The position numbers and the translations under genes are program-made. A stretch of DNA of 64,000 nucleotides, taken from assembly GCA_023205875.1 (NCBI GenBank), contig CP060758.1, positions 496,001-560,000 on the forward strand. Direction: 5' to 3'. Under the pieces are notes generated by a model, which did no database searches, was not told where the DNA came from, and saw only the letters and a program-made list of their open reading frames with translations. The stretch is from Chloropicon primus. Lineage: Eukaryota. This document shows positions 16,975 to 64,000 of the stretch, one piece after another (positions within the stretch are counted from its first letter, which is position 1; each line of letters begins with the position of its first letter).

Positions 16975-17009
16975 TTGCCAAGCAGAGCCAAAAAGACGTC
17001 TTATCAATT

Positions 17010-18267: not shown

Positions 18268-18364
18268 CGTGTTCGCCCGAGGTAGGAAGTGGCGAAGGAC
18301 TCCGCATGCAGCTTCTGGCTCACATCTGCCCACGTCAGAGAGATCGAGTGACGAGGAGGGGGAC

Positions 18365-18412
<48 letters not shown>

Positions 18413-19614
18413 AGGGGGAGAGGTCATCCATCCTACAAGCAACAATCTTGGCTGCCTCCATGCGTGATTCCGATTCCTCTTGGTGTTCTCGAGAGGGTGG
18501 CAGCAGCAGCAGCAACAACAACAACAACCGTTGTCGCAAGGAAGGATGTTGATGGCATCCGGCATATCAGTCTCGGAGCGCATTCTTGGATGACTGGTTG
18601 ATCACAGAATCCTCTCTGATCGCCTGGTCAGTGGTCTCTTTGTCATCCAGGACAAGTTGTCCTCCTCCTCCTCCTGCCTGGACCGCCCTTGGATGACCCG
18701 GTCTGTGATCTGCGAACCTGGAGATGGTGACACTCGCAGGCAAGCCGTTGGCCCTTTTGGATGAAAAGGAAGGAGACCAGCAGGGCACATCGGATCGCAT
18801 CAGTGCTCGCCCTCCTCGTCCTCATCCTTGCCCTCGTCCTCGTCCTGATAAAGATCATGATCCGACCTGACCTGACCTCGGGATCCGGATCCGGATCTGT
18901 TTGACCCAATTCAATTTCGAAGAAAAAGTGGGTTGGGGGAGTCGTTCCGTTGAGGGGATTGACCGTTCACCATTCCGTTATTCATTGCCAAGACAACCCC
19001 CGCGCAACCCCCCTCGTGTAGAAACACCACAACAAAGGTACGTTGATCCCATGGAAAGTACATTCGATACAAGAGTAAACACCCTCGCTCCGCATTCGAA
19101 CATTTCTAAAACTCACGACCCCACCCTTACCAAGCCAAACCTACTCTACCCTGCACTTCACATTTGAACTTCGTTTGATATTTCCACCTTGATGTGTCCG
19201 TTCTTGTACCGAATGTGTATCTTCACGGGGTGTTCGTTGATCCCATGGACAAGTTCTCATCAAGATCGTGTAGAAAACTCTTGTTGAGACTCCAGTGGTG
19301 TGCGGTGGTGTCGAGGAGAACGAAGCGAACGAGGCGAAAGGAGAACCTTTGTCTTTGCTCGTTGCGTGGGAGTGCGGGACTTGACTGGAGTTGTGCTTGT
19401 CGCTTGTTGCAGTGTGCAACCAAGGGAGGACGAGGAATTCAAACACCTTGAGCTGCCTTTGCTCGTGTGTTGACTGGACGGAGCAAGAGGTCCCTTGACT
19501 GCCTTGGAACCTTTGCTTGAGAGGTTTGAACTTTTCCCTTTGTGTGTGTGTGTGTGTGTGTGTGGAGAACTTTGTTGGACACACAGGTGTCGCTTGACTT
19601 GACTGAAGAGAAAG

Positions 19615-21607: not shown

Positions 21608-21696
21608 AGCGGTGAGACGGACGTTTGCCATTTGGAAATAATCAAATAGAATTAATTTCCCCCCTGTATCTATGATCCAACACATTATCAAGATTG

Positions 21697-22711
21697 TTAT
21701 GCTCCTTCGCTCGTCTTGCCAAGCACCTCGATCAGCAGCTTGGACAGCCTGTTGAGCGGCAGGCCCATCACGTTGAAGTAGCAACCCTTGATCCCCGAGA
21801 CCATGGACCCGCCGGAACCCTGGATCCCATACGAGCCTGCTTTATCCATGGGCTCCCCCGATGCAATGTACTTTGAAGTTGGAGGGGAAGAGGCACACGC
21901 GAGTCAGAAGGGAGGTGTTAACAGCGCGAGGCGTCGATCGCATGCCCAAACTCACCGCTCTGATCACTTCCTCCGGCAAAACCGAAAAGGTTACCGAAGT
22001 GCTTTCCGCACACTTTGTGAATTCCTTGGACCGCCCCCCGGACTCGAGGAGACACACGGCAACGCCGGTGTGCACCGTGTGTGTGTTTCCACTGAGCTTG
22101 GAAAGCATTCCAAACGCCTCCTCTTCCGTGGCAGGCTTCTCCATCACTGTTCAAAGACAAGTCAAGGACGAGAGGGAGAGAGAGAGAGAGAGAACATAGA
22201 GATGCGGGATCCGCGCCACGGTTAGCGACCCCCGCGTGTCCACGAGATCACGAGACAGCGGCGTGTTGGGCTTACCTTCCCCCTCCAAATCCACGACGGT
22301 ATCCGCGCCGATGATGAGATACCTGCCATCGCCATTGCCTTTCTCCCGCTCAAGAATAATGTTAGAGACGTCCTCGACCTTGTGCAAGGCAGTGTCCGCT
22401 GCATAGTCCGCCGCATTGTTCGAGTACTTGGTCTTGTCGAGATCCTCCGCGAAATTGGACACAACCGTCTCGTACTCCAACCCAAGTGACTGCAAGAGTT
22501 CCTTCCTCCTCGGTGATTGGGAAGCCAGGATCACCGAGTATTTTTTCAACTCTCCACGACAGACGTGCAACATGCCGCGGACGTTCGAAGACGCTTGCAG
22601 CGGCTCAGGACCTCGAGCGTGTGCCTTACTCGCTCTGCTTCCGAATGGCCTCCCCCTCGCTCCACCTCCGTACACGAATGGAAGAGTCGTGCTGGTCGGC
22701 CTCGCTCTCAT
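21697..22711 (-). CDS. Maf-family nucleoside triphosphate pyrophosphatase, 3 exons (22711-22276, 22146-21956, 21870-21697)
   Basis: [50 protein letters not shown] and [10 protein letters not shown] are joined by GT-AG introns. The start may instead be the ATG at 22573. Confidence 0.88.
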
Positions 22712-38990: not shown

Positions 38991-40361
38991 TCAGTCCTTG
39001 CTGCGCAAGCGAATGCGCGGTGGCCAGTCCAACCCGTAAGACTTCAAGAACCTGTCGAGTATGGGGAGCGGGTCCAACTCCTTGGAAAGAATCTTCTGCT
39101 CCAGGTCGTTGAAGGCGCTCTCGGACCAGCCCTCGCCGAAGTAGCCCAAGCCGATCATCCACGCCGCTATGGCGTCCGAATCGTAGTAGAGGCTCGAGAT
39201 CCCTTCCTCGTGCTCCTGAAGGAGCGTTTTCGCGATGCTGTTGCCGAGGTACTTGGACAAGACGGCGAAGTACGCCTCGTACCTGTTCTGCTCCGAGGGG
39301 TACGGGTACATCTGCGGTTGCTCCGCAGGCTTTTCCATGGGCCTTTCTATTGGGCTCCCCTCCGCCTTTCGCTGGCTCTGCTGCGAAACGCTGTAGTGCT
39401 GGTGCTCCTGCCGGTGGTGGTGGTGGTGCGGGTGGTGGTGGTGCGGGTGGTGGTGGTGCGGGTGGTGGTCGCTGTCCTCGAACTGCGGCTGCGTCTTCCC
39501 ACGCCCATCGTCTTCCGGCGGCCCTCTGCCTCGACCGCCCTTGGCCTTCGCAGCGTTGGAGCTCTTCTTGGCGCTGTCCAGCTGATCCTTCAGCCTCTGC
39601 TTCACCTCGTCAAAAGTCTTGGTGATCCTTTCCATCTCCACCATGTTGATCTTGTGTAGAGTGTTCTCCGAGAGCATGACATTCTGGAAGCCCTGGCAGT
39701 CGCTGAGGAGCTCCTCCGTCGACTTGCTCTTGATTTTGGTCTCGAGAGCCTGCTCCCTCATGGCCTTGTCCATCTCGAACAGCTTGTTGAAGTACTTGGA
39801 CTCCCTCAAGACCTCCTCCAGCTCGGCCGGGCTGCTCGACGGGGCGTGCTCCCTCCCCGGAGCACGGCTCGAGTACCTCGGCTGGGCGCTCGTGGAAGGC
39901 ACGTTGCCTTGCAGGTGAGAGGTGGCCCTCTCGGTGTCCCCTGGCAGCTCCACCAGGTGGGAGGGCACGAAGTCCTCGTCCGAGTAGTCCCCAGGTCCCT
40001 CGTACATGGCCCCCCTCTTTCCGTGAGGGCCCCTCTTCGCCCGCTTCATCGCCTTGGCGTCGTGGTCCACCTTGTGGAACACCGGGCCTGGCATCCTCCC
40101 CACCTTGTTTCCCCTTCCTTTCGGCGGCTGGTACGGCCATCGCACCAATCCAACCTCGCGGCACCTCTTGCGAAGCGTCCTCACGCTCATGTTCAAGTAC
40201 TTGCAGGCCTCCTCCTGAGGAAGGTGGCCGTATCGTATGATGTCATCCTTATTGAAAGCCACCTTGTCGCACCTTTCCTTCCTTATCACCTGCAGTCGCG
40301 GGCACCAAAGCGAGAGGAGCAACCAAGACGAAGACAAGTTAGCACAACAAGAACAAGTTAA

Positions 40362-40395
<34 letters not shown>

Positions 40396-40642
40396 ATGAG
40401 TCAGGGAAGCTTGGTTGTGCAAACCAAGGCAAAGAAAAGTCCTTGTCCTGGTCGGAACTCACCTCTCCAGGAGGGATGCACATCTCCATACGCCTTTTTC
40501 GGAGGGTAAAGGTGCTCACCCCCAGCCTCTGGGCACCATCCCTAACGCTCAAGTTATTCACGCTCTCAATCTCTTCCCTTGAAAGATATATCTTCCTGTT
40601 AGATAACTTTTTCGGCGGGATCTCTCCGTCCGTGTTGGACAT
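38991..40642 (-). CDS. RWP-RK transcription factor with two RWP-RK-like units, 2 exons (40642-40463, 40289-38991)
   Basis: Exon 2: DIIRYGHLPQEEACKYLNMSVRTLRKRCREVGLVRWPYQ. Exon 1: EEIESVNNLSVRDGAQRLGVSTFTLRKRRMEM. Phase-0 intron gtgagt..ctgcag contains a (CA)n tract. Confidence 0.8.
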
Positions 40643-44448: not shown

Positions 44449-45287
44449 AGTGGCAGACGGCCGGCACGTCGTCGTCGACGCGAGCAGCTGACTAGCACAA
44501 CATGACTCATCCCCTGTAAAATCAATCGCCAACTATGTTTCCCAAGTATATGTTGTGCGTGTAAATCAAGATCTTGTACTTTTTTGCTAGCGTCAAGCTC
44601 TCCTTCGCCCCCCTCTGCCCCTGGACACACACACACACACCTGGTCTGAACCTCCTCAGCCCTCCGGGAGGAGGAGACAAAGCACGCACAGCAGTAGACA
44701 CCCGCCCAGACAGACAGAGAGAGAGAGAGAGAAGGGGAGAGAGAGAGAAGGGGAGAGAGAGAGGGGGGGGCGGGGAAGGCCGCTCCCTGCATGAAAGAGA
44801 GAGGACCCTCCTGGTGGATGGTCCCTCCTCCGTCCTTCCCCTTCCTAGGAAAAGTGAAGCCTTCCTTCGAATGGATTACGAATTCGTGCTCCGCGGCCCC
44901 AAGGCGCGGCCTTTGCCTTGGGCTCGTAATTCCTTAATCAGAGCCAAGACACGGTCTCCACCTCGGCCTCGCCCCCCCCCCGTCATGGAAAAACTAAAGC
45001 GCGAGGCCCGAGGCGAGGAGAGGAGTCAAGCCGAGAGCCCAGGAGCGGGAGAGAGAGAGACAAGGGATGGCGAGGATGATCGGACAGAGGAAGGACAGGG
45101 CGAGGAGTGGCCTTGCTGGCCTTGTGGTGTGGCCCTCGGTGAACCAAGGTTCCTTCACTTGATTGGCAGAAGGAGTCTTTGCGCGCACAGACAGACAGAG
45201 AGAAGAGCTCGAGTCCTAGCTCACACTCCTCAGACCAAGAAGGTGGGACAAGAGGGAAGGGAGGACCAAGAAGGTGTTGGTGTTCCC

Positions 45288-45289
45288 TC

Positions 45290-45328
<39 letters not shown>
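45288..45328. repeat. (GT)n(GA)n compound microsatellite immediately before the giant ORF ATG
   Basis: Seen directly. Similar tracts occur at about 18367-18400, 19541-19564 and 40365-40392. Confidence 0.85.
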
Positions 45329-45329
<1 letters not shown>

Positions 45330-48300
45330 TGACATACGTGGAGATGACAAGACGGAGGGGGGGAAGAGGCAGGAGCCTCGTGGGAAGGAGAGCGTCCAAT
45401 TGGCGCCAGGTCTTCCTTCTGGGACTGTTTGTAAGTGCCAGCCTCCTGGTAATGGCCCAGGACGTCCTGGAAGGGCCTGAAGAGATGGACACGGCTTCTC
45501 TGATCGTAGCAGATATAAGGAAGCCCGTTTATGTAGACGAGGACGGCAACTTCGTGGAGGCGGACAAGGAGAAGCACTCGGAAACCTTTATGCCTGCCTG
45601 CTCCCAGGTGTGTGCTAAGCTTCCAGGTGGTGCAACCTCGAGCTCGACTGCAGACTGCACAGAGGTGTGCAGTTACGGTAGGGTTTTCTTTTCGACTCCG
45701 GGAGGAAGTTCCTTCACGCCCAAAGGTGTGTTGCCTGGAACCTCAGAGGAGCAACCCAAGGGACTCTTCGATACGGCAAATTTTGGCCTCACCACTATCA
45801 ACTACCTTTCCTCCAAGTGGTACACATACATCCCGCCGCGAGGCCAGATGCCTGACGAGGACTGCGTGGCGCTCGGTAGGGAGCCCCCCTGCGGCTACAG
45901 GCCGGGGGACGTGAACCCTTACGGCCTCAGGATAGTGAGTCTGAAGGGAGGAGCGCAAGACATACAGACGGCCACGATGAGGCACCTTCCTCAGGCCATG
46001 GAGTACGACTTGCTGTCGCAGAGCATCCTCATCCTGACGGACAGGTTCCCGGCTACGAACTACCCGACGACCACGGGTGGGAAGCCTGTTCTGACCCTGC
46101 TGGCGATCAATGAAACGACGGGAGAGAGGCATGAGAACAACCTGTCAGACACGGAGGCCGGGCAATCGGTTCTCCAGTTCTGCAGCGCGATGAACGCAGG
46201 CTGCGAGTTCAAGCCACCGGTTTTCGCGTCGCTTCCTCATGATTACGACGCTCTGGCATACCAAGCGACCGCCTTTGACACCCTGAACCAGGTGTTCTAC
46301 TGCGTTCTGTACAACTCGGAAAGCCCGGAGACTTCGAAGACGCTGTTCGCGGTGAAGAGGCAGACGGACGCCGCGAGCTCTTTCACGAGGCCGGGCTCGG
46401 GGGAGTTCTCCGTTTCCATCGTGTTTGAACAGATGCAGTACTACAAGTGGCCCGAGAGACTTCAGGCGATATCCTCTCTCGAGCTGTCGCCCAAGCTCGT
46501 GGAAAGCGATGGTGCTGTGTCGTTTCAGCCGGTGGAAAAGGGTTCGGCGAGGGGTCTCTACGCCGTGGCCAGCGTGAAAGAGAGCGTTGGACCTTGCGCA
46601 CCAGTCTCTTTCGGGGGGAGGGGACTGCACTGCGGTGCCGCGCTTTCGGAGGAGGATGTCCTCGAGCACAACAAAGTCTACACGAGAACCTTTAGCAAGA
46701 CTCAGCTCGAGTGGAGCGCGGATAGGCCGCCAAGGTGCGAGTGCCCGAACGCTGTTGTTCAGCTCAACATCGCGGAGGAGCCTTCGTATGACCCGGAGAC
46801 TCAGCTGATGAAGCTTGGCAATTTCATCTTGGATCCCTCTGGAGAGGAATTCACGATCCTCTCTTACATCGATGAGAGGGCCAAGGAGCAGAGCGACACG
46901 CTCCCCACACCAAGCACGTACCCGAGCGAGCAGCTCATTCCAACGCTGTCCGCCATCCAGTCGCACAGGCCAGAGGACACGGGGTCCTTGTTCTTCTTCG
47001 ACAAGGAGACGGAGGGCTTCAACATTATCGAGAACGAGATGGCTCTGTTGTACGATCCCAGCGTTGTCGTGAACCAGTACGACGTGAAGGCGAAGTTTCC
47101 TTTGGACAACTTTCCCTTCTTCATGTTCAACGTCTTGCAGGACTCGAAAGCGGCCGAGGGCCCGCTTTCGGACATTTATCCCCTGGAAACCATCTCTTCC
47201 AGGAGTTACATGACGACGGTGCGAACGAGCCTCGAGCTCGGGGGGCTGGGAGGTCTCAGGACTGGCCAGTACGTCTGCGTGGAGCAGCCCATGACCTGTG
47301 AAACGTGCAAGAGCGATTACCGACTCGAGCTGGAAGAGATTCTTGGCGCAACGATCACGAGCGATGGAGACTTTTACCAGGCGTGGCAGAGCCTGTTCAG
47401 CAGCGGGGCGTACACCAAGGAGCTGTTCGCGCTCGACGAAAAGATCAGGCCGTCGGACCCTGACACGTACTCCTTCAGTTGCCCGGAGCCGTGCGACGAG
47501 TACACTTGCGACCAGTGCTTGAGGTTGTTCAACAGGCCCTGCGCTCTCTACATCCAGGCAGGAGTGCCCTTTTCGGCGGACATTTACGCTCTGAACGCGT
47601 TCGGAAGGCAGCAGAAGTACATCTCCGACGACAACTTCACGGTGACCATTACCGGCGCGGGATTTGACGCCGAGAACAACCCTGCGACGATGCCTGAGGG
47701 TGACATCAAGCTGGGACCGGTGTGGAGGGAGGAGGGCTCCGGGTACCCGGGGGGACCTTTGCCGGAGGGGCAGAGGCCCCTGGCGGGTTCCGAGCTCTTT
47801 AGCCCTGACAACCCCCTGGAGGCGGTGTGGGCGTACCCGAACTACCATGACTTCGGTTCCACGACGTCCTTGAAAGCGGGGGAGACTTATGACACGCTGT
47901 GCGACCCCGACGAGACTTTCGTGAATGGCAAGTGCTCCCGTTACATCGTGAGGCCCAGGAATGTCCAGCCCGGCGTGTACACCGTGGAATTCTCGTTGGA
48001 CAAAGCCGGGAACTACTCTATCGCCGCCACACTTAAGGGACTTCTGACGTACGAGGACGAGACGCAGACAACAGTGGACTTGGGCACGGACATCTTCAAC
48101 TCTCCGTACCTGCTCACCGTCCTTCCGGGAGACACTTATTCGTTGTACTCCTCCGCCGAGGGGGGTGGACTGGCGAGTGGGCAGGTGGGAGTGGTCGGAA
48201 GCTTCCTGTTGAAGGCGAGGGATCGATTTGGAAACAACCGGATACTGGGTGGAGACGTCGTGGACGTCTTTTTCAAGGGAGCAGATTACGTGCACGGGGC

Positions 48301-51300
48301 GGTAGAGCTTCTCCCGGAGGACAATACGTACCTCACCGAGCCTCTTGGCTTTGTCCCGTACGCGAATGTGACGGACACTGGAGATGGCAAATACCTTGTA
48401 CAATACTACCTCATCTCAAGAATCCGCGAGAAGCCGTTCTACAGCATTGACGTCCAGCTGCAGAAGGAGAGCATTCCCAGCAACGAGGAGGACCCCACCG
48501 CGCCTTTTGTCATCGAGATCCTCCAGGGAGAGACGAGCGCGGAGAAGAGCTTTGGCCTCCAGTCCTCCCAATCCGAAACGGGTCTGGAATACGTGATCGC
48601 TGGAAAGCCCTCGGTGTTCACCGTCCAAGCAGCGGACAGATTCGCGAACCTGCAGGCTCTTGGAGGGGACCCCTTCCAGGTCACGGTCACTGACGTCAGC
48701 CTGAGATCCCTCACCGCTGGAGTGGGAGGTGTCGTCTCGGAGGGGGGCGACGCCGAGTCGATCGGAGCCAGGAGACTGCAGCAACTCGACGACACGTTCG
48801 TGTTCTCTGATCCCACGGTTGAGATCGACTTTGACTCCAGCGAAGGAGACCTTGGACGATACAAGGTGGAGTACTCCATCTTTGAAGTCGGAGTCGCCAC
48901 CGTCGAAGTCAGTCTGTATGGAGACAACATCGGTCCGGGTGTTCCAGGGACGGCGGGAGAGTTCGGGTCTCCGTTTACCCTCTTCGTGTCTGCTGCCGAG
49001 ACGTTTCCTGGGAATTGCATCCTTTCTGGACCTGGACTTGAGGGGATCGCTGCTGGTGACAAGGGCGAGAGTGGGCTCGGCCAGTACGTCGAGCTGCAGC
49101 TTCGGGATGAGTTCGGCAACCAAAAGAGCGGGGCTGTCGAGGACGCTTACTTGAGAGGCAACGGGGCAAACTATCCCCAGCTCACCTTCAGGTATCTGCT
49201 GGACTGCAAGGATGAAGTCGTGGACGCCAAGGGGGAAGAAATCTGCGAGGGAAACCTACCGAACAGGGACCTCGAGGGTGTCACTTTCATCGAGAAGCCG
49301 TACATCGAAAGCGGCCCTATTCTGTACGACCTCAGGACGGATACCGTCTCGGTGGACGTGCTCACTCAGCCTATTTCTGATGGCCGCTTCCGCAGCTTTT
49401 TCACGAGTACGCTGGCCGGTGTTTTCGAGATGGAAGTCCTGCTGAGGCCGGTCAACCTGGCCGGCTCGGCTTTCACTGGAAACTTTGAGCCCATCATGGG
49501 GGAGGATGGGGGCCTTGGGACCGCGAGTCTCAACCCTTACGCGAGCCCGTTCACGGTCGTCGTGACTCCGTCCGAGCCATCCATCGAGTACAGCGAGATC
49601 TTCTACTACGATGTGCCCCTGGACAAGGTCGGGAGGGAGTGCACCGCCCCCGATCCTCAGTACGACTGCAGAAGTGCCTACGACATCATGTACTCCACAT
49701 TGCAGGGCAAAACGCACGAGATGATTGCCAGCGAGTCGGGTCTTCCTGCCCTCCCCACCGATTTCATCAAGGGGACTGCTGGTCTCGTGAGTTACTTTGG
49801 CTTCCAGCTGCGTGACAAGTATGGAAACATGGTAAAGGAGGTCGAGGACACGAGCGAGCTCCAAGTCCAAATCACCGGTTTTGACGCGATCTTGGGACAA
49901 GAGTTCGAGGTCCAAGTGAACTCGGATTACCAGGGGGACGGAAGGTGGCGCATGAGCTACCTCGCGAGCCAGACTGGGCAGTATACCCTGAAGCTGATGA
50001 ACGCGACGACGAGCGCGGAGCTTCTGAAGCTCGAGGTAAACGACGATGGGGCTTGGGAGCCCACCACCGAGCCCTTCAGCCTGTCGGTGACTCCAGCGGA
50101 CACTGATCCCACGTTCTGCACGGCCACGGGAGGGGGCCTTCGAGGGGGCCGTACGGGCGACAAGCCAGACACGCTCTCGATTACTGTGATCGCAAGGGAT
50201 CAGCTCGGAAACAAGAAGTCCACAGATGTTGGAGAGGTCGCGATTGAGGAGGCCTCGAGGTTCAAGTTGTACGTGACCCTTTGCGGGGCGGCAAGCACGC
50301 AGGCTTGCGACAGCCGAACCCGCGAAGGTTTCCCAGGCGGGTCTCTTGCTGACATCTCGGAGTTCGCCACCACGGACATTCCGGGAGAGTACAGGGTGCA
50401 GTACACCCCGACGATCAGTCCCGATCTCATCCCTGCCGAGGGAGGCTACTTTCTGTTGGAGATCGAGTACAACGGCATCAGCATCGGGGGAGACACGGAC
50501 GTGCTCTCGAATGATGACACGACGTTCTTGAAGCTTGTGCCTCAAGCCACGACCGTTCCCGAGCGCGTCTTTGCCCTTGTCCAAAAGGAGTACCTTGGGG
50601 CGGACCCCACGCGGAGCATTCTCTCCACGTTGAATGGCATGGACTACACCGCGGGCCTGGGACAAGGGGTGGTGGGGCAAGCGTTCTCCCTCCAGGTTCA
50701 GGCGCGTACGAAGGAGAACTTTGACCTCGTGGAAGGAGGCATGATCAAGAGGCTCGTTGTGGAGCTGTACGACAAGAACGACAAGCTGGTGGTTCAGGCG
50801 TCCAACACGTGGCCCGAGTCCCAGCCTGCGGACACCCCTGAGCTCGTCATCGACCAGGCGGACGGGACCTTCCTTGTGGAAATCCCTGCGATTCCGGAGA
50901 CCGCGGCGCCAGCGGACGTGGAGGCCGGCGCTTACGACAACCGGGTGACCGTGGCGGACACCTACTACTTGGAGATAAGGGGCGCCAAGGCAGGGTTCGT
51001 GGACATCGTGGAAGAGCATCTCTTGGGATTCTCGAACAAGACTGCGAACCCTATCGTCTTCAGGCCCGGCAGCACGAAGCTGGAGAGCGTTGACATTTTC
51101 AACCCGAGCACCATGACTCGGGTCGTGGGAGACCTGGAGGCGCCGTTCGAGATCGAGGCGGGCCAGCTGATCAAGTTCTTCCTGCAATCGAGGGATCGAT
51201 TCGGGAACAACGTCCGTTGGAGCGCGTACATTGGTGGCGACAACTTTCTCGGGCAGATGATCAGACCGTCCGGTGGAGCAAACGCCGACGTTCCTGCCTT

Positions 51301-54300
51301 TGTGCACGACAACCAGAACGGAACCTACCTGGTAGAATTCACCCAAGTCATCAGAGGAGCGTACAAGATTTACCTCAGACTTGACAGCGTCGCCCTTCCG
51401 GGGTCGGACGGCCTCTTCCCGTTCCCTTCCCCGACGTTGGCGCCAGATCAACTGGACAACCTGCAGCTCGCTTATCATTTGCCGATGACGGTGCTTCCGG
51501 CACCCAGGCACGTTCCGAGCTGCACGGCGACCACGGGCTCGGGAATTCCGCTGGACGGCTTGGAATTGAAGGTCTCGGAAGAGGCTGAGATCAGGATTAT
51601 CGAAAGGGACCGGTTCGGGAACCTGAGGGACTTTGTGTCGTTGGACTTGCAGGGGTCCCCGATCTCCTTCGCCTTGAATTTCACGTACAGCACCAAGGGA
51701 AATGCCAGGCAGCTGGCCCAAAAGAACTTCATCGTCAACGAGGGTGAATACGAGCTGGCTGCGAAAGATGCGTTCCACTCCATTCCGTACGTTGCGGGTG
51801 GTTCCAACTTCTTGTCCGGAGAGTACCTGGTGTACGTCTTCAGCCGTTACGATGAGACGGGAATCACGCATAGCGTCGTGTCGATCGCGGGTTCCCCAAG
51901 CATGATCACCGTGCTTCCCGGAGCTTTGTCGCTGGAGACGACCATTGCCTATGGCCCGGGCATCGTTTATGACAACTTGAACCCCGGAACAACGAGGGCG
52001 GGCGTTCCGGCGACCATCTCCCTGCAGACCAGGGACATTTACGGCAACGACCTGCTCAGCGGAGGTGAGGAGTTCCTCATCATCGTCAAGCCCCTTGGCA
52101 CGGGTATTTTCAGCGAGTCAAAGTTCGAGTCGAGTGCGACAGGGTTCTACCAGGGCGAGTACACCAGTAAGAGTTCCGGCAATATGCTTATCCAGATCAC
52201 CAGTCAGTCCCAGCTGCTTCCCACGACGCAGTTCCTCTACGAGGACCCCGTGACGAGGATTCTGGAGCCGCGGGTGGGTTCTCCTGGAGCCTACCAGGAC
52301 GGATTGGAGCGCGGCACGGTCGTCGACTCCATGGAAGATCCGGTGAGCGGAGAAATCATCGGGACTGACCCGGGCGTCATCGTCAACATTTTGCCGGGAC
52401 CTCTGAGTCCCAGCAAGTCCTATGCCCAGGACGGCGAAACGTCGGAGGAGTCTGTCATTCTGGGCGGCGACAAGTACGGCAAGATCAATATCGACGGCTC
52501 CATCTTGGAGATGGAGGTCGTTCCAGTAGATATTTTCGGTCAGAAGAAGACTGACAACGACGATGACCAGCGCCTGGAGGCGCGCATCGTGTATGTCATG
52601 AACATCAACAACGAGACGACTGGAATTTTCCCTTACTCGGACGAGACGTTTGCGGACAGGTGGGAGCTGGACGAGGACGGGCGTTGGATCTCCAAAATCG
52701 CTCTAGTCAGGAAAGAGGGGCTCGTGCAGTTTGTCCCCAGCAACCAGGACGGCGAGGGGATGGTGCCCATCCTCGTGGCGGGATACTACCAGTTTGAGGT
52801 TGACGTCGTTAAGTTTGACGTCGCGGACCCAAGCCTGGTGCTTGAGAGGACCCCCATCGGGTTGGAGGGAGTCGCCCCCGTCAGTCCCTACAAGTTCTTT
52901 GCCAACCCTGGGCAGTCGAGCGGCTCTGAGACGTCTTTGAGTTTCGGCGAGGAGGAGGATGCCACTTCGTCGAGGAGGAGGAGGTTGCTGCAAAGCTCCT
53001 CCTACCCCGCAACAAGCGCCTTCTTGGAATCTGCTGGCGTGGACCCTGCCGAGGCTGAGACCTACAAGCCAGACACCTCGTACGACTTTAGCGTTCTCGC
53101 GGGAACGGAAAGGTCGCTCTCCGTTGGCCTCTCCGATGCCTTTGGTAACGCGCAGCTCTTTGATGAGCTGAGGAGGTTGGACTCCCTGGTCGTTCGGCTG
53201 GGAGAAACGTTTATGAACGGCTCGAGCCCCTGCTTTTGGGTGGAGCCGCAGTTCGAGGCTGGGCAGCATGACATCGACAACGTGGAATCAAACCACGGGT
53301 GCACGCTTTTGCACAGGGGCTGGTACCAGGGCCCGGGATCGGACGTTACGACGAGTCCCACTCCCGTGGGACCGGATTACTCTCCTGTGGGCACAAACGG
53401 CAAATTCCTCGGGCTGCAGATGTCGGCCGTGAACAACGTCGACACTGGCTCTTTTACGATCAGATTCACGCCAGACGTCCAGCTCCCCGCCATCGCGTAC
53501 GGGGCGTACCAGATGGACATCATCCTGAATGGGCAGCACATCGGAGCGTCTCCTTACAGGTTCAGGGTTCTGCCTGGGCCCATCTTCGGACCCAGATGCG
53601 AGCTGTTTGGCCTCAAGCCAAGTTACGAGGTCAACAAGACCATTGAGGTCGGCATCATAGCAAGGGATGCGTTCGGGAACAATCAGACGTCCTCGGGCAA
53701 AGAAGACTTCTTTGTCGTCGAGGCCTCCGTGACGAAGAAGAACGTGTTCGGGGTGCCGGTTCTTGTGAGAGGGTGCACCCAGAACACGGGCGCCGCGTCG
53801 TCGTCCTGCTCCTTTTCCATAGCAGTTTCGGGCGTGGAGAACATGGGCTTGTACGTGATTTCCATGCTCACCACGACTGCGTCCGAGTACTCTCTCGACG
53901 GAGCGGAGGATCACATGTTGGAGGTCAAGTTTTGCCCGAACCCAAGCCTGTGCTCGGATACTCTCAATGTGTACAACCCTGCTGGTGTGCATGCCACCGG
54001 TGTGTACGAGCCGTACGGGCTTCGGATAGAACCTGGACCGACGGATGCGGCCTCCACGATTGCCTACGGGACCGCCCTGATCGAGGGCGGAGTTTTGGGC
54101 CAAAGCGCGAACTTCACCATCGAGGCAAGGGACATCTTTGGCAACAGGAGGTTCAAGGGAGGCGATAACTTCCAGATACTGATTTATCAGCCGCCGCCCC
54201 AAGGCCAGCTTGATGTGGACAGCCTCCAAGACCTGGACAACGGAAGGTACCGCGTTTCCTTCTCGCCAGGAGTCGCGGGGAGCTACTCCATCGTGATCTT

Positions 54301-57300
54301 GTTCGGAATCAACAGCGTCGCAAACAGCCCTTACAGGCCCATCTTTGTGTCCAACGAGAACCTTGTCAAGGTCTCGCAGACAAGGGTCGTGAACCAGTAC
54401 GGCTCGCTGCTCGTGATTTTGCCCCCCGCCGTCGCTGCCGAGGACTACGAGCTGGACATCCAAGCCTACTCGAGGGACAGTCACTATTCCTTTAGCTACC
54501 CCAAAACCAGCGGCGGCGAAGTCTTCGCGGCCACTTTGACCCCGCCCTCAAGCAACGGGATTCCGTCCGTGAAGTCGAACGTTACCGTGCTGCCTGATGA
54601 GGAGAGGCCGGGGAGGTACACCGCCAGAATTTCTGGCGCCATGATACAAAAGTCCGGAACGTACGGCCTCGCTGTGAAAGCTTGCACCAACGGAGGAAAC
54701 GCCACGAGCGTGAGTAGTGCCATGCCGAGCGTGGAGGACTTGCAGATGGTCGGAAACACCGGCAACAACACGTCTGTCTGCGGACAAGGCCACGTGCTGA
54801 AGCACATCCTTCACTCGCCTTTCATGGTCTTTGTTCACTCTGGTGTGCCCGACCCTGCCAATAGCTTTGCAGTGGAATTCGCGAACCCTGACGCGCTCAT
54901 TAACCACGGGTATGGTTGGACGGTGGGCGAGGTCCTGTCGTTCACAGTCCAGATCAGGGATCGATTCAAGAACAACTACGACATCAACCCTGCTTCTGGC
55001 AACGTGCTGTCTCTGGTGGCGCTTAAAATTTCCATCTCTAGGCTGTACGACGAGGATGCTGCGGAGTTCCCCGAAGTCTTCGTGGAGGACACCAACCAGC
55101 TCGGAAACGACGAGTTCTACGTGCAGTACACCGGGTCGAGCGGCCGCTTCATTGTGTTCCTCAAGACAGAGAGTGCTGGAGACTACCACTTTGATGTCGC
55201 ACTGAGGGGCACGAGAATCAAGAATGGCTTGGTGGACATACCCATCAAGCCGGCTGCGTTTGACATCACGAACAGCTACATCGAATCTCCGGTGAGGACC
55301 ATTTCCGTTGGCCAGTCGTATGCTTTCTTCATCAGGGCGAGAGACGTCTACGGGAATCCCCTGATTAGCGGCGGGGACAACTTCTTGATCGACTTGACGT
55401 CCTCGAACCCGATCTTGGATCCAGGCATCGGAGAAAATCCTCTGAACGCCATTGGTGAGGCGCAGCTGCCACAGGCCGGGATACCATCCTTGAGCAAAGA
55501 AGGCAAGTACACCTACAGTGATGACTTCGTCGTGGGAGCAAAAGTGTCCATTGCGGACTTGAATGATGGCTCGTACAGGGTGCTGATCAGAAGCGACAGA
55601 GCGGGCACCGTGCTGCTCACGATTAGCATGTATGGGGAGTCCGAAGGCCTTCCTGGCATCTGCGGTACGGCGGACGCCAAAGCCCTCTGCGACGCAAATG
55701 CGCTCGTCACGAGTCCTGCCTTTGGCATCATCAGCGTGGACGTGCCGGCGGGCAATCCATCGGCAGCAGAGTCCTTCGCCGAGAACTCGTTTGGCGCTTT
55801 GCAGCAGGCGAACGCCGGGGAGCTGACGAGATTCAGGCTGAACGCGAGAGACAAATTCAGAAATGACCAGACGCTGCCGGGCTTCAACTTTGAAGTTCGC
55901 TTGAAGTCGTCGGACGGTATGTCCGACGTCATAGGAAACGTGTACTACAGCACCACAGCGAGCCCCCTTGGCCCCGCCGGTATCTACATTGGCCAGTACA
56001 CCCCCATCCTTGCCGGAAACTACGACCTTAGCATAAGGAGGGCAGGGAAGGAGCTGAAGGGCAGGATTGCTGGCACCATCCGCCGTGGTCCTTTCTCTCC
56101 GTTTACTGTTCTGCCTGGGTCGACGGCAGGAAGCACAACAATTGCTGTTCACGAATATCTCGAGAACAACTCCACCTTCCTCGGATTTAGCAACCAAAAT
56201 TTTGTCGCCATGGCAGGTGCCACGACCACGTTCTCCATTGTCACCAAGGACAGGTATGCGAACCCGAAAACTGTGGGCGGCGAGGAATTCGTGATTAACG
56301 TGGGCCCCCTGGCCCAGGGACTGTCGCTTGATCTTGGCAATGGCACGTACTCTGCGAGCTACAGAATGACGAGTTCTGGGGATTACAAGTTGGCTATACT
56401 CGTGAACAACCAACTCGTGCAGAACCCGCCCGCGTTCTTCGATGCCTCGGAGGGAGGATTCAAGCTCGTGGTGATGGCGTCGAGCACGCTAGCTTCCAGG
56501 AGTGAAATCGTTGGGGTGGGGTTGACGACCGCGACCGCTGGCTCGACCTCGGCCTTCTCCATCCAAACGTACGATGAATTCGGAAACAAAAAGGATTATG
56601 GCGGAGACACAATGATTGCAGAGCTGTACAGCAGCGACACGGATGTGGTATACCCCATCAACGTCACGGACAACAGGGACGGGACGTACGATTTCGGGTA
56701 CAGGCTCGACCACGCGGGTATCTTCTCCCTGTCGATTGCCTTGGAGTCACAGGAAGGGACGAGAGAGGTGTTTTACAGCTCCCTGTCGCTTCCTGAGGAC
56801 AACCCCCCTCCGGTGGTTCAGATCGAGCCAGGCACGCTCTCCTTGGCGGAAACCACAGTGAAGGTAGACGAATCGCTTACCTACGTCTTCGATGTGCAGA
56901 CCTTTGAGATCTTGCCGAGAGATGACTTTGGAAACTTGATCACAAAGGTTGGGACAAGCGATTTTTCTGTCGTCGTCTCGACCGGTCTTGCGCCCAATGG
57001 AAACCTGTTCCAATTCATCAGAACGGAATCCAACCCAAGCATATCTGAAATCGAGGGTGGTTTCCAGAGTTCGGTTGATGTGAATACCCCAGGGTCCTAC
57101 GTCGTGAACGTGAAGTATGGATCAACCTTGCTGGGCAGGCCCTACGTGTTTCAAGTCATTCCGGCCCAGGTCGGAATATCTTCCGCCCCGGAGGGTCACC
57201 ACCACGCGTGTTTGACCACCGTTTGCACGGTGTTGGATCTCTTGCAGTACGAGGGGGAGATTTTCAACCCTCTCTTGCAGGGCGCAAGCGACAGGGAAGG

Positions 57301-60300
57301 CCGTGCTAACCCCGAGTACAGAGTATCCATCCGGGTCAGGGATGTGTATGGCAACGACCTTAGCGATTCCATGAAGTCTGTGGACAACGTGGAAGGCCTC
57401 GAAGGATCCGAAAGCTGTGGAGAGTACAGCTCCGAACATTGTCCTTTCAGGGTGACGGTCACTCGCCCCGATGGGCTCCGCATGAGCTCTCTCGCCGGCT
57501 GGAACAACGACATGATCAACAAGGATGATTCCGTTGGAGTGGAAGTGAACGACAGCACCGGAATTTTCGAGGCTTTCTGGGCATTCATTCGATCGGGCAA
57601 TCACTTCGTGTCCGTGTCGTTCCACTCGTCTCATGACGAGAACTTCCCCGAGACCTCGGATTCTAGAGGAGCAATGGTGAACCCAACGCCTCTGGATGTG
57701 AAGGTGATCGACTTGGACATGGTAGAGTTTGGACCAGCAAAGGCTTCCAACACCATCGTAACGGGACTCGGCTTGTTCGGCAGTCTCGCAGGAGAGCCGG
57801 GAGAGCTGAACATATTGGCTGCAAGAGATGCCTGCATATTGAACAACGCCGTTGTCGCCAGAGAGATATGCTTGGACTCTGACCTTGCCAGCGAGGAGTC
57901 CGTCCTCATGAGAAAGGGGGGGGCGCACTTCAACGTCTCGATCGTCCCGGTTCCCATCGCGGGTGAGAACACGACGATGGACGATGCCGGGTTCTCGTTC
58001 GACCTCGAGGACTTCGAGGATGGATCTTACCTGCTGGAGTACAAGATCGAAAGGGCTGGGGAGTACCTTTTCAACGTGAGCATGCTCAATCCCGGCACCA
58101 ATTTGTACGACAACCTTTACGCGTTTGCCATGGGTGGAGCGAGGCTGATCACGATCCTGCCTGGAGAGACCGATGCGGCGATGTCACTGATCAAGGGCTT
58201 GCCCTTGGCCGGTGCCTCCGTTGCTGGCCGAAGGGTGAAGTTCGAATTCACTGCAAAGGACCGCTTTGGCAACCTGCAGCGGGCGAAGAGTTTTGAGCTC
58301 ACCGAGGACAGCTTTGAGGTGGTCGTGGAACCAATTCTCACGAGCGAGGAGGACATTTACCTCCCGGCTGACCAGGCTCTCCTGGAGAAGTCGATCTCGA
58401 TCGAGCCCACCAGCGAGTCGTCCTACTCCGCTTCGTTCCAGCCAAGGAAAGCTTTTGTGTACCAAGTCTCGGTGAGGCTCCGTGGCAAGGATTTGGGAAA
58501 CAGTCCAGTCATGCAAGAGGTCATACCGAGTGGCATAGGATCTCAGTTCAACGTCTTGACGGGTTTGAGTGGACAGACTCCGCAGGAGGCCATCAACGCG
58601 GCTTCCGCGAAGGAGAACTTCACCCTCGTCCTGAACGCCTTTGATGAGTTCAACAACAAGATCAGAATAGGAGGGGACAGCTCCAAGTTTTTCATGGAGT
58701 ACGTTTTCCTGAAGAAGGACATTGTCGTGGAGACGAACCTCGTTGAGATCGCAGACCAGGACGACGGTTCATACCTCCTGCATTTCGTTCCTTCTTTCAC
58801 GGGAACGTACGCCATCCGCCTGGTCGTCAACGGCGTCCCTGCGGTGGCGCTCGGCGAGTCCTACACCGCGCAGGGGGACATCAAGAGTGTGGCCGCGTAT
58901 GCGTTGCAGTGCGAGCCCGAGGGACCTGCGTTCAAGTCCGGAACGGCCGCCGAGGTTGGCTCGTTCAAGCTGATCGTTAGGGATCGCGACGGGCAGATCA
59001 AAACGGTCGGTGGAGACGTCGTGTACGCGTCCCTGGTTCCACGAAGCGCGGTGAACGAGTACGACGCCAAATTGACTTCCGCGTCGCTGCAAGTCATTGA
59101 CGAGTCCACTCTTCCGGAATCGGACCCTGATGCCGTGGATGGCCCCGTGCCTGGCCGTTACAGGATCAGCTACAACGTCCAGAACTTCGGAGAATACGAC
59201 ATCAGCGTGAAGATCAACGGAGAAGACGTGAGGGGATCCCCGAGCGTCCTTCAAGTCGGAAAGAGGCTTCCTCCCGTTCAGGACACGGCAATATTCTCGT
59301 CGACCGCGACGAAGCTGACGCTGAACTTCCAGGACTCTTCCGGGATTCCGACCAGGACGAACAGAGGCGATCTTTTCGGCCTCGATACCTGTGACAAGTT
59401 GTTCGTTGCCTCCACCCTGACCAAGTTGGGTGACAACGCCAGGTGCACTTTCGTGAATCCTTCCAGGATGGAAGTCCTTCTTGGTTTCGGCGCCTCTATT
59501 CTGCCAAACGAGGAGCTTGTGTTCCGCAGTGACGAGGAGGCCAACAAGATCGTGACCTTCGAGAGGAACTCCCTTCCCGTTTCGGGATCTGTGATCGTGG
59601 AACGTCCTGTCGTATCTCCGCTGCCGACAATCGTCACAAGAGGTCCAACGAAACTCAGTTTCTGCGAAGACTTTCATCTCGATGCCAGCGGATCCTACGG
59701 CGCAGCAGGAAGGGCGTTGAAGTACTCTTACGGCATTTTGCCAAACGTACCAAATGACACGACGATTTCAGGACTTCTGGAGGAGCTGAGCCGAAACTCC
59801 GCGCCGAGACTGAGCTTGAGCAAAGATTACTTCGCTCCCGGAGTTGAGTACACTTTCACGATTAGTGTCACAAACTTCCTTCTGGAGACGAGGACGGTCA
59901 GGCACAAGGTGACGAGGATGCCTTACGCGATTCCTCAAATTCTGATCGAGGGTGATCCCGTCCTGAGGACTGAGAGGAACAAGCCGCTGTACATCAGGGC
60001 GAACGTGAGCGTGCCGGTGGGCAGCAGTGACCCCAGGTGCAACATCGATCTGCCAAAGGTCGACTTCACGTGGGGATTCGACAACAGGACTGTTGATGTC
60101 CAAGGCTTCCCGCTCGACCCCGTCACAAGGGAGACAAAGACTTTGTACATTGCTCCGGGGACCCTGGTCGCGGGCAAGAAGTACAACTTGAAGGTCGATG
60201 GAGAGGTGAATGGCAACGGCACCCTGAGCAACTTTGCGTACGCATCAGTCGAAGTGCAGTACAGTCCGATCGTCCTTGCCGTCAGCATGCCGAGCAAGAT

Positions 60301-63300
60301 TACGGACGACATGCCTTTCGTGATAGATGCTTCGGAATCGCTTGATTACGATGACCCGAGCCCAGAGAATCCCCAAGATCCATTTGGGCCCTTCATGTTC
60401 TACTGGTCGTGCCAGAAGCTCTCGCCAGCGGGCGAGCTCCTTCCCGAGCCTTGCTTCACCGGATCGAAGCAAGCGATTCTTTCTCAGGATCCCCTTGAAA
60501 GGGTGTTGAACATTCCAGAGGGCCTCTTGGAGGAGGGCACCTACTCTTTCGCCGTCACCGCGAGCAAAGAGCCTTTGTACGCCGGAGGCGCAGAAATCTC
60601 TGGAAGAGTGAAGCAGTTCCAGAAAACGGTGACGGTCACCAAGAGCGCCAGCGAGGAGGTGAAGCGCAGGGTGAGGAGAAGGCTCATGGAAGAGGAGGCC
60701 GAGGGGGTGGACGACGAGAGTCTGAAGCCTCCACAGGTGAGGATCAAGCCTGTGACAGGAATCGTCAATGCGAACGAGAGGTTCGCTCTGGAGAGCGTTG
60801 TGACGTCGTCTCTGAACGGCGGTCAGTTCAACCAAAGCGAAATTTCGATCAAGTGGGAAGAGCTCAACGGGATCATTGACCTCGAGACGTCTTACCCAGA
60901 CTTGCTGGGGACGCCTCACACGTACAAGAACTTGGTCTTGAAGAAAAACAGCCTGTCTCCTGGGCAGGAGTACAATTTCCAGATTTCTGCGTTTTGGACA
61001 AAGATGCCAGAGCTTGGAACGACTTTCGACGTTGTCTCTTTGGTGGCAAATGGAGCCCCGTCTTCTGGACTGTTTGAAGTGTCCCCAGTGATTGGCCATT
61101 CGACCAGCACGAGATTCACCCTGAAATGCAGTGGGTGGGAGGACGACAGCGATGAGCCCGTGGAGTACGAGTTCCGTTACATTGATCCGAACACAAACGA
61201 AGCGATCCCTCTGGTATCAAGATCAAGAAACAACGAAGTCACCTCAATCATGCCTCCCCTCGGATTGGGCCAAGAGGAGCAAACGATCGACGTCACGCTC
61301 CAAGCTTATGTCGTCGACTACTACAACGCGAAGACGGTGACAAACTTCACCATCGCATTGATGCAGAGAACGGCGACCGAAGTCGATCCGATTGAAATGC
61401 ATCACGAGCAGAGCGACTGCCCTGTGATGGAGTTTTTGAGGGAGAACGATAAGAGCGGCGATTCAGCGAATTCCACCGGCACTTCAAGTGCTTCGGATTC
61501 TGGCTCAAACGCCAACTCCACTTACTCCTCGAGCACCGAGGGGACTACTAGTGCCGCCAGCAGGAGGGGGCGCTCGCTCGCCCAAAACGCTCAGAACAGT
61601 ACGACGACGCAGTCCACCTCTGGAACAAGCTCAACCGATGATTCGGAAGTTGACCCACCAGAGTGCCGCTACAATATCACGGGCTTCTCCGCCTCTCTCT
61701 ACCGATTGGTTGAGAATGACCTGGCGCTGGCTCGCGGCACGAACGATGTCGCGCAGCTCCTTGTCATCGCAGCGAGCGTTGGACAGCTGGCCGGAGAGGT
61801 GAAAGCTGAGCATGAGCAGAGGCCTGTGGTCCCTGACGGGTTTGATCCGCCGGAAGATTTGCAGATCATCTTGAACCAGGACGGGATCAACTCCTACTCG
61901 AATTTGGAGCAGCTCAAGGTCGTGGTGGAGGCGTTGAAAGACGCTGTGACCACGGAGAAGTTCACAAAGGAGTCTATGGACTCTTTTGGAAACACTTACA
62001 GGCAGGTGCTGGCGCACGTGGGCGAGGACACCGACGCCGGATCCAGTGTTCTCCAGATTCTCGATCAGGCGGGGGGCACTGGCGTGGACTCCGTGGCGGC
62101 ATCCAGCTTGCTGGATTCCATGTCGATGCTCGCAAACTCGTATGAGCAAAGTGCCCAAACCTTGCAGAACATGATCAGAGACGAGCTTCTTGGCTCCGGC
62201 TACAACAGCAGCGGCGCCAACGACACTTCCTCTGACGGCGGTGACGGTTTCAGGAGAAGAAGGCTTTTGCAGCAGCAGCTCGTGACGGACCAGGCTACGG
62301 AAGTCATGGATATGGTGGACAAGCTGGCGTCTGCCGGCGTGAAAGACGCCGTGGACGGAGAGGATGCCTTCGAGGTGAGCAGCCCGAACATCCAGGTCAT
62401 GTCTGCGAAGAGGGAAGATCCCACTGGGTCTTTCAACCTTCCAAAGGAGCCGGGTGCCAAGGACTCCCCGTCGTTCGATGTGCCAACGGGCTTGGGCAGC
62501 GGCAGCGGAAACGTCGAGATCGTCTCGAGCGCGAACAAGAAGAACCCTTTCCAGGGAAGCATCGCTTCCGGTGGCAAGTTCGCGTCTGCGATCTCGAGCT
62601 CTGTGGCTAGCTTTGACTTGAAGGCAAACAGCAGCAAGATGAACGTCAGCATTGACGCGTCGTCGGGGCAGCAGCCCATTACCATCAAAATTCCGGTGCC
62701 CAAACCCGAGAGCTCGTGCAGGAAGGTTGAATCGAAGTGCCGGTACTGGGATGAGCACAAGCAGGAATGGAGCACCGAGGGTTTGTTCGAATTGGAACGG
62801 ACGGACGAGTACCTCGTCTGCCAGACGTTGCATTTGTCTAGCTTTGCTGTCAGCACGGATGACGTCGTGCCGGAATTCAACGTGGTGGATCCTTTCGACC
62901 TGGACCTCTTCTCGCAAATGACTCTGGACAACGCTTTGGCCATGTTTATTGTTGGCGCGATCTACATGCTCTTCGCCCTGGTGAACTACCTCGGGTACCG
63001 GGTGGACAACCAGAACAGGAGGAGGATGCAGGTCGAGCAGAAGCTGCTGGAGTTGGACCAGGGCATCAAAGGATTGTCCTTGACCAAGGGTGGTCAGGGC
63101 ATCTCGGCACCTTGGCCATCGAAGATGGGTTCGAACAACAAGAAGTCCGCTCTGACCAAGGAAGAGGAGGAGAGCCTTCGCTCTTACATCTCAAAAAAGC
63201 TTCTGAAAGACAGTGAGCTCGTTGCGGTCATCAATGTCAAGCCAGGGGACAAGTACACCAGACCCCAGCGGCTCATGGTTCTGCTGAGCATCGTTCTTGG

Positions 63301-64000
63301 ATACTTCGCCACAAGCGCCATTTTCTTTGGCCTTGATCCTTCCAACATCGCCGCGAAGCTCTTCATCGGTATCTTCACGGCTATGATACTTGGTCCTGCG
63401 AAGACGTCCTTCAAGCTCCTGTTCCGCAAGTCGACTTATTACGCTCCAAGGAAAAGGCCGGCGAGGAAGAAGCACATGCAGTCTCACAAGGCAAAGGCTT
63501 TGTCGAGGAGCGATCTGTGCACCTACCAGATCAAGGTCTTAACCTCAAATGTCCCCTTCGCGGGAACGCACAAGAATGTTCACGTCGTGCTCTATGGCGA
63601 CAAGGGTCGTAGCGTGACGCACACGCTGGATGAGGGCTCCCTCATTTTCTCGGAGGGAGGAAAGTCGTCCAAGGTATTGTTCGAGAGGGGAGAGCAATCT
63701 GTCTTCGAGATCAAGACGCAGGACGTTGGCAAGCTCGACCACATCGACATCGGTCACGACGGAAAGGGGTGGGGCTCTGGCTGGCACTTGAACTACGTGG
63801 TCGTGATCAACAAGAGCACGGGAGTTGGGGCCAAGTTCCCCTGCGGGCTTTGGCTGGACAAGAAGCTCGACGGAGGGTACTGCGAGAGAACTCTGAACGC
63901 GACTGATCCGTTCGAGGACCTTGCGATCCTCAAGGATGCTGGCGATTCCAAGGACAAGCTGTCGCCCGGCAGTCCTGCGGATGGATCCCAGAGGAGCGCG
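45329..64000 (+). CDS. Giant polycystin-1 (PKD1)-like membrane protein: signal peptide, about 25 filamin-type repeats, REJ, GPS, TM1-3, PLAT; runs off the window (at least 6,224 aa)
   Basis: The frame starting at ATG 45329 reads open wherever I translated it, and the ORF track has no terminated ORF in this frame. Signal peptide VFLLGLFVSASLLVMA|QD. Repeated (R/K)D.FGN..GG...D.GDG.Y motifs at about 47500-59260. REJ-like LDASGSY, IDASES.D.D...FYWSC and NGAPSSG.FEVSP..G...T.FTLKCSGWED..P.EY.F.Y. GPS CRYWD.....WSTEG...CQTLHLSSFAV. PLAT YQIKVLTS...AGT..NV.V.LYG..G...FERG...IGHDGKG..SGWHL..V.V....FPCGLWLD. Confidence 0.9.

Follow-up and report, generated by a model that had tools for sequence, protein, structure and literature searches.

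Members of the polycystin-1 family (PC1/PKD1, PKD1L1-3, PKDREJ and the SpREJ3-6 proteins with 11 transmembrane (TM) helices) combine a very long ectodomain, an REJ domain and a GAIN domain with its GPS motif just before TM1 with a cytosolic PLAT domain, a TOP/polycystin domain and a six-helix channel. PKD1 has been stated to be absent from protists (PMC7265326), and non-metazoans are said typically to lack PKD1 homologues (PMC10846610). Here we describe a giant gene of about 20 kb in the green alga Chloropicon primus, located in positions 496,001 to 560,000 of the forward strand of contig CP060758.1 (assembly GCA_023205875.1). This stretch of 64,000 nucleotides (nt) is referred to as the window, and all positions below are given within it. 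The gene encodes a protein of about 6,700 amino acids (aa) and, judged from sequence profiles, is the front, five-helix half of the polycystin-1 type without the ion-channel half.

The algal protein shares with the polycystin-1 family the very long ectodomain, REJ, the GAIN/GPS placement, five homologous N-terminal helices and a cytosolic PLAT domain. It differs in lacking the TOP/polycystin domain and the six-helix channel, in carrying PLAT after TM3 instead of TM1 (with PLAT missing in some orthologues), in having IQ-like motifs in the TM3-TM4 loop, and in an ectodomain that has a filamin-type rod and a propeller-like head where the family has LRR, lectin and PKD repeats. Thus, it resembles the receptor half of polycystin-1, but since both PLAT after TM1 and the channel half are missing, we do not count it as a member of the 11-helix family.

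Three further groups of proteins invite comparison. Sea-urchin REJ-GPS proteins with fewer helices are known (PMC1934368): SpREJ1, 2, 7, 8 and 9 are likewise REJ and GPS receptors without a complete 11-helix channel, but they come from an animal, are predicted to have 1, 2 or 6 helices, carry PLAT (if present) just after TM1 and lack a filamin rod. Adhesion G-protein-coupled receptors (GPCRs; latrophilin, CELSR, GPR126) have the GAIN-B fold, a GPS before TM1, a repeat-rich ectodomain and a likely stalk-based activation in common with the algal protein, which differs from these seven-helix receptors by its five PC1-type helices and REJ. GAIN domains are also known in Dictyostelium and Tetrahymena (PMC3321182). 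Finally, the gamete adhesins FUS1/GEX2 represent extracellular filamin/invasin-type immunoglobulin-like (Ig) arrays in green plants; they have 7 Ig domains (FUS1 being single-pass) and no REJ or GAIN, in contrast to the 26 repeats, head, REJ, GAIN and five helices found here.

Membrane region and homology to polycystin-1

A preliminary description of this DNA, made from the sequence alone, had proposed a green-lineage polycystin-1-like receptor with GPS, TM helices and PLAT in that order. The domains themselves were recovered, and the detail was corrected: the order is GPS-TM1-TM2-TM3-PLAT (Table 1), compared with GPS-TM1-PLAT in PC1, so that PLAT does not directly follow TM1. Past the window end follow a low-complexity loop rich in Pro and Arg, a pair of IQ-like motifs, TM4 and TM5, and a basic tail of 19 residues. 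The Lys/Arg counts beside the helices fit five helices with the N-terminus outside and the C-terminus inside, which would place PLAT and the IQ-like motifs in the cytosol. The modelled PLAT domain aligned with a lipoxygenase PLAT (VIA-align Z 16.6, root-mean-square deviation (rmsd) 1.9, 112 residues aligned).

The relationship of the helices was examined with several profiles. A PLAT-free family profile was built from 28 channel-free relatives, hand-picked as the shorter proteins among the 150 listed matches of the family search described below. Its top match in the PDB was human PC1 (E 5e-28, chain residues 58-612, PLAT forming an insert), which outranked all adhesion GPCRs; the structures of the latter matched mainly the GAIN/GPS part, to about TM1, and no Pfam 7tm match was found in the giant protein or among the precomputed domains. 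When profiles of seven algal rows were compared with six 11-TM PKD1-like proteins, scores of 14-34 bits (TM2-3) and 18-38 bits (TM4-5) were obtained, the maximum scores in 120 local shuffles being 6.9 and 4.4, respectively. Alignment with six 11-TM PKD1-like proteins by hhalign gave a probability of 98.6 (E 1.5e-15) for TM2-3 and 98.9 for TM4-5. PC1 TM4-5 was also the top PDB match of the C-terminal alignment, at a weak E of 0.083. The PC1 helices in the PDB were not found by phmmer with the single protein or by an eight-row profile; only the deeper profile detected them.

Three motifs are common to the PC1 and algal helices, namely TRxQR before TM2, LP.W before TM4 and AWLLSS in TM5. In the PC1 chain 6a70_B, HMMER placed PLAT (103-206) before TM2-3 (233-330), the reverse of the order in the algal profile. 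On this sequence evidence, the five helices are considered homologous to TM1-5 of polycystin-1, a stronger kinship than had been argued initially. The earlier statement that REJ, GPS, TM helices and PLAT together define the family does not hold in that form: REJ and GPS are present here, but PLAT lies in another loop and is absent in several orthologues.

The preliminary description had further suggested that the window might hold the first half of one polycystin channel subunit with 11 helices. The window indeed ends before a stop codon, and the longest transcript contig runs 1,289 nt past it; reaching the modelled stop takes 1,428 nt, about 140 nt more. However, the sequence past 64000 in the public gene model (P0001/P0008) ends 19 aa after TM5, eight relatives (P0002-P0004, P0047, P0050, P0007, P0059 and P0062) end 14-72 aa after TM5, and in the DNA of the relatives L001 (75% identical) and L002 the stop lies at the same place after TM5, without introns. 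Neither PKD_channel (PF08016) nor PF20519 was present among the precomputed Pfam domains of 7/7 database matches. An 11-helix channel subunit is therefore very improbable.

Table 1. Positions of the features of the giant gene and of two other genes in the window
Feature	Position	Strand	Evidence and remarks
Coding frame, 6,224 aa in window	45329..64000	+	ORF analysis; C-terminal rest from P0001/P0008
Likely signal peptide	45329..45457	+	Hydropathy; basic N-region, hydrophobic aa 28-42
N-terminal head, ~690 aa with Cys, predicted propeller-like	45458..47530	+	Predicted structure, head profile
Rod of 26 filamin/GEX2/invasin-type Ig-like repeats	47531..59353	+	Pfam, self-built repeat profile
78-nt in-frame GT..AG stretch, likely coding	57170..57247	+	Spliced out as intron in public model
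REJ domain	60725..61399	+	PF02010, E 3.7e-37; better of two Pfam stretches, module begins further upstream
GAIN subdomain B with GPS motif (62735-62854)	62441..62872	+	PF01825, E 1e-7
TM1, after conserved post-cleavage stalk	62936..62992	+	Sequence profiles
Re-entry segment with TRPQR motif, TM2 (63272-63328), TM3 (63350-63400)	63182..63433	+	Homologous to PC1 TM2-3 by sequence profiles
PLAT/LH2 domain, cytosolic loop after TM3	63518..63901	+	PF01477, E 1.1e-16
B9-C2 ciliary transition-zone protein	1-972	+	E 6e-29
RWP-RK transcription factor	38991-40397	-	~5 kb upstream of giant gene

Gene model and transcription

The gene forms a single open frame on the + strand, with no stop in 6,224 codons, that is still open at the window end; the two other + frames over the same interval contain 161 and 212 stops. 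At that stop rate, the chance of a stop-free frame is ~1e-82. The GC content at third codon positions is 0.74 overall and 0.68-0.79 along the length. The initial claim of a stop-free frame of at least 18.6 kb was thus borne out, and no in-frame stop splits the region. The gene had also been called missed, which is true of the window's open reading frame (ORF) track, where it is absent, likely because the ORF listing shows the frame only as 3'-open. It does not apply to NCBI, UniRef and EukProt, which hold a 6,633-aa model (P0001/P0008) with 476 aa beyond the window end.

The public model likely has two errors. First, it starts at Met42 and leaves out the hydrophobic signal-like segment (45329-45451). 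Second, a 78-nt stretch (Table 1) is removed as an intron. The 26-aa peptide encoded there is conserved in the relatives P0002, P0003, P0004 and P0047, and the contig of RNA run X1 is gapless and unspliced at this place; we therefore regard the intron as likely spurious, which gives a full-length protein of ~6,700 aa.

None of the sequencing runs listed for the gene is recorded as RNA; the RNA nature of runs X1, X2 and X5 was judged from spliced joints, and X1 was accepted as RNA because it splices 7 introns in neighbouring genes (16275-22276). In this run, a contig of 11,714 nt spans 53576-64000, the 3' 10.4 kb of the gene in the window, with no gaps and unspliced, in agreement with the proposed intronless structure; among the pieces listed, six shorter ones lie within 49043-53588. 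Run X2 contributed seven short pieces within 59545-63901. No RNA contig was found over 44861-48160, a gap that by itself is no evidence; the listed pieces leave the 5' 3.7 kb of the gene, with the start codon, uncovered, and none of them spans the whole gene. P0001 and P0008 differ at two Ile/Val sites, which correspond to two G>A differences in X1 (59018 and 61310); the window has the P0008 alleles. The gene is thus transcribed, in RNA runs from separate studies, and no intron was found.

Ectodomain

At the N-terminus, aa 28-42 (mean hydropathy 2.6) fit a signal peptide, as judged from hydropathy; the N-termini of P0002-P0004 are similarly hydrophobic. The following head had no Pfam match and no ESM Atlas match at 0.9 or above (best 0.81), and its structural model gave no Foldseek match at E<=0.001, the weak rows being mostly propellers. 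VIA-align superimposed this low-confidence model (mean predicted local distance difference test (pLDDT) score 52) on an NHL propeller with Z 11.3 and rmsd 3.1 (196 residues aligned). All top rows were six- and seven-bladed propellers, with NHL the best and many ties, and the head is accordingly predicted to be propeller-like. Among the proteins compared with the head profile, this domain was confined to green-algal orthologues.

The rod was matched by Pfam Filamin in three pieces (E 5e-20 to 7e-58), and also by Ig_GEX2_N and Invasin_D3. A profile built from its own repeats detected 26 of them at aa 735-4675 and none in the reversed control, and the best PDB sequence match was the rod of the Dictyostelium gelation factor (E 1.2e-15). 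These results agree well with the preliminary description, which had listed a signal peptide, a Cys-containing N-terminal region of ~720 aa (13 Cys lie within the first 500 aa), ~25 filamin-like repeats, REJ, GPS and PLAT (all three found by Pfam; Table 1) and an ectodomain of ~5,800 aa.

The rod brings to mind a gamete or cryptic-stage adhesion receptor, FUS1/GEX2-like on a far longer stalk, given that Ig_GEX2_N, Invasin_D3 and the gelation-factor rod are the templates reported for FUS1/GEX2 (bioRxiv 10.1101/2021.09.03.458930), that the sea-urchin REJ proteins are sperm proteins (PMC1934368) and that a ciliary B9 gene lies in the same window. Nevertheless, we hold this reading to be improbable. 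The Ig_GEX2_N matches are weaker than those of Filamin and point only to a shared fold class, FUS1 is single-pass with 7 Ig domains (bioRxiv 10.1101/2021.09.03.458930), and transcripts occur in RNA runs of separate studies (culture stage not recorded), in which a gamete-only gene would be less often seen. Orthology to FUS1/GEX2 is not claimed.

The model of GAIN-B resembles the GAIN domains of CELSR1, CD97 and BAI3 at Z 7.0-7.3. The motif for self-cleavage is intact (H-L-S, with the predicted cut between Leu5836 and Ser5837), and the H-L/F-S/T form is retained in 15/15 green-clade rows shown and in 132/138 GPS-bearing matches.

The ectodomain is acidic. It also contains Arg-rich RRL[L/Q/M] motifs at aa 1148, 2549, 5116, 5413 and 5643 (~48770, 52973, 60674, 61565 and 62255), whose positions are partly common to P0002-P0004 and which we take to resemble subtilase/site-1-protease sites. 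Besides the GPS cut, the ectodomain may be cut at these motifs into several pieces.

Green-algal orthologues

The nearest named relatives of the protein are from Cymbomonas, Pedinophyceae and Mesostigma, with which, together with environmental sequences, it clustered in quick trees (SH-aLRT 100 and 97). The architecture, proposed earlier as something to be sought in green algae and protists, recurs in these lineages (in some of them without PLAT), and its core extends to a wider range of protists. No Chlamydomonas orthologue was among the names found, names having been looked up for only 27 clusters, many of them nameless.

Members of this orthogroup have the head domain, 21-26 repeats and IQ in common. 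The rod length is maintained in the Mesostigma, Pedinophyceae, Cymbomonas and environmental orthologues at ~30% identity, and TM2-3, TM4-5, the stalk and IQ are better conserved than the rod. IQ is also retained in Cyanophora P0070. PLAT follows TM3 in the C. primus protein and 10 relatives, and is absent in Mesostigma, Cymbomonas, P0007, P0052 and P0055; it precedes TM2 in 7 PKD1-like matches.

The repeat number held at 21-26 across deep divergence would also suit a structural tether, in which the Ig rod holds a wall layer, scales or flagellar hairs in place or at a distance, while the five helices serve mainly to attach it to the membrane. In Chlamydomonas, MST3 plays this part for the mastigonemes: a PKD-like domain anchors it, and the protein determines the length of the filament (PMC11015965). 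An acidic ectodomain with RRL motifs resembling processing sites is compatible with such a role. Against this, the intact GPS, the conserved stalk and the IQ motifs exceed the needs of an anchor, and in other family members the same core bears unrelated ectodomains (EGF, TSP1, TIG or fn3) and a cytosolic RhoGAP (P0079), as in receptor families. A purely structural role thus appears unlikely.

Distribution and evolution of the family

A profile covering GAIN-B to TM3 was searched against 1.84 billion representatives, which yielded 1,004 matches at E<=0.001, 150 of them listed. A homologue search restricted to proteins of 631-2000 aa gave 3 matches. GPS, TM2-3 and TM4-5 occurred in this order in 88/150 listed matches, the other 62 being fragments or lacking a segment and left unclassed. 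As many as 79 of the 88 lack PLAT and have fewer than five further helices, and 54 of these 79 end within 110 aa after TM5, although truncated gene calls may account for some of the short tails. PLAT after TM3 without a channel was found in 3, and PLAT after TM1 with 5-6 further helices in 6. Three of these six channel-bearing proteins were scanned and contained Polycystin_dom and PKD_channel; judged by their domains, the six are taken to be animal. Because the search query was channel-less, the class shares among the 150 listed matches do not represent prevalence.

Channel-less members were named from Cymbomonas, Pedinophyceae, Mesostigma, Cyanophora (2), Rhodelphis, Achlya, Cantina, Andalucia and Rigifila, and a fragment from Rhodomonas fell in the cluster of P0083. 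Cyanophora, Rhodelphis and the Rhodomonas cluster likewise combine this core with filamin rods (5-43 repeats); other members have EGF, TSP1, TIG or fn3 ectodomains. The Rhodomonas cluster and its kin (P0085, P0214 and P0083) have 42-43 filamin-like repeats in ~7,100 aa, without the green-algal head. Four further channel-less members (P0079, P0114, P0126 and P0147) carry RhoGAP (P0079) or tetraspanin-like modules in the TM3-TM4 region, or F5/8 or TRAF-zinc-finger modules after TM5, which suggests that these are variable output modules.

A tree uniting the PLAT-bearing algal proteins with the channel-bearing ones was rejected (p-AU 2e-5). This was a quick tree of 32 rows out of 87, unrooted and with an unresolved base, so that it gives no order of events. 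The rejection makes it likely that the two PLAT placements have separate histories, through either gain or relocation.

Relatives in many distant protists suggest that the five-helix half has long existed as a receptor of its own. We tentatively extend this to a scenario that seems to us possible, though short of an even chance: the REJ-GAIN-five-helix unit would form an independent receptor family dating back as far as the major supergroups of eukaryotes, and animal PC1 would have arisen by fusion of one member to a TRPP channel. Green algae would have retained one giant member with a filamin rod since chlorophytes and streptophytes diverged, with PLAT placed independently in another cytosolic loop. 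Such proteins would be the missing protist counterparts of PKD1 and may gate a separate PKD2 in trans.

A distinct proposal is that of a split polycystin, in which the protein, acting in trans, provides the front half of PC1 and binds a separate PKD2/TRPP channel to give a PC1-PC2-like complex. The PC1-homologous five-helix domain agrees with this, as do the presence of PKD2 in green algae and their use of split PKD folds (MST3 and SIP; PMC11015965). Yet PC1 meets PC2 via TOP (PMC9672506), which is absent here, the PKD2 of Chlamydomonas has other partners (PMC11015965, PMC10846610, PMC7265326), and no TRPP gene was found among the 26 window ORFs scanned. In PC1-PC2, contacts are also made at the pore, and these would be lost with the channel half. 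Such a complex is quite doubtful.

Proposed function

On balance, we consider it probable that this ~6,700-residue five-helix protein, a homologue of the N-terminal half of PC1 without the channel half, works as a self-cleaving adhesion or force sensor at the cell surface. The steps below are inferred from domain content and from work on PC1 and adhesion GPCRs. The signal peptide would send the N-terminal ~5,800 residues outside the cell, where GAIN would cut itself between Leu and Ser, the two fragments remaining together. The propeller-like head would be carried on the rod of 26 Ig domains to a distance on the order of 100 nm (an Ig domain measuring ~4-5 nm) and could bind a ligand on a wall, scale, surface or partner cell. 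Pull on the rod would then strain REJ/GAIN and shift the conserved stalk against the five-helix bundle. Output would pass through the large cytosolic TM3-TM4 loop, in which the two IQ-like motifs may bind calmodulin and PLAT may bind lipids and steer trafficking. The protein itself would be non-conducting, and calcium entry, if any, would occur through a separate channel. For PC1, stalk-dependent signalling and lipid binding by PLAT are reported (PMC9672506).

Several points weigh against this interpretation. In PC1, the proposed target of the stalk is TOP (PMC9672506); as TOP is absent here, the stalk step needs a different one. Filamin-like repeats alone do not show adhesion, since structural proteins inside the cell (dynein alpha heavy chain, TRIM71) have them as well. 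The IQ call in the C. primus protein is based on a motif and on Pfam IQ matches in orthologues, and the propeller head depends on the low-confidence model. AlphaFold modelled the membrane part poorly as well (mean pLDDT 47.5, ~50 in the helices): the model gave only PLAT matches in the Foldseek listing and an unconvincing superposition on the PC1 bundle 8z6b (Z 7.3, rmsd 12.4), so that the claim of a five-helix bundle rests on the profiles. The ligand, location, cleavage and signalling of the protein are all predictions.

Genomic neighbourhood

The B9-C2 gene (Table 1) indicates that the genome keeps cilia genes. The ordinary neighbours in 1347-42958 encode Sec6, a THUMP methyltransferase, IF2, phosphofructokinase, SMI1/KNR4, WD40, TBCC, condensin Cnd2, an HlyIII-family membrane protein, Vps52, GYF_2, an ABC1 kinase and ataxin-2. 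The named matches of the ABC1 kinase are mostly chlorophyte, with few from land plants and streptophytes. GT and GA microsatellites are located directly upstream of the start codon (45280-45336) and in the upstream intergenic region (44698-44779).

Significance

Compact chlorophyte genomes with ~57% GC have been described for Chloropicon and Pseudoscourfieldia (PMC13213038, PMC6731263, PMC12301720). The main texts of these papers contain no mention of polycystin or PKD, though their supplements might list the gene. A literature search, which left subscription papers and supplements largely outside, yielded no description of a channel-less five-helix PC1-like family or of this algal protein. 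The giant gene is ordinary-looking in its own genome, yet represents an undescribed receptor type.

The stated absence of PKD1 from protists holds for the 11-helix form, but genes for its front half, complete in themselves, occur in many lineages outside the animals. Such stand-alone forms would let the five-helix domain of PC1 and its stalk be solved and tested without the channel, which bears on force sensing by PC1. The presence of PLAT in two different loops of one scaffold suggests a lipid-binding module that was recruited twice or moved. Finally, that a compact algal genome with few introns has preserved a gene of 20 kb points to a surface structure or a life stage not yet recognised.

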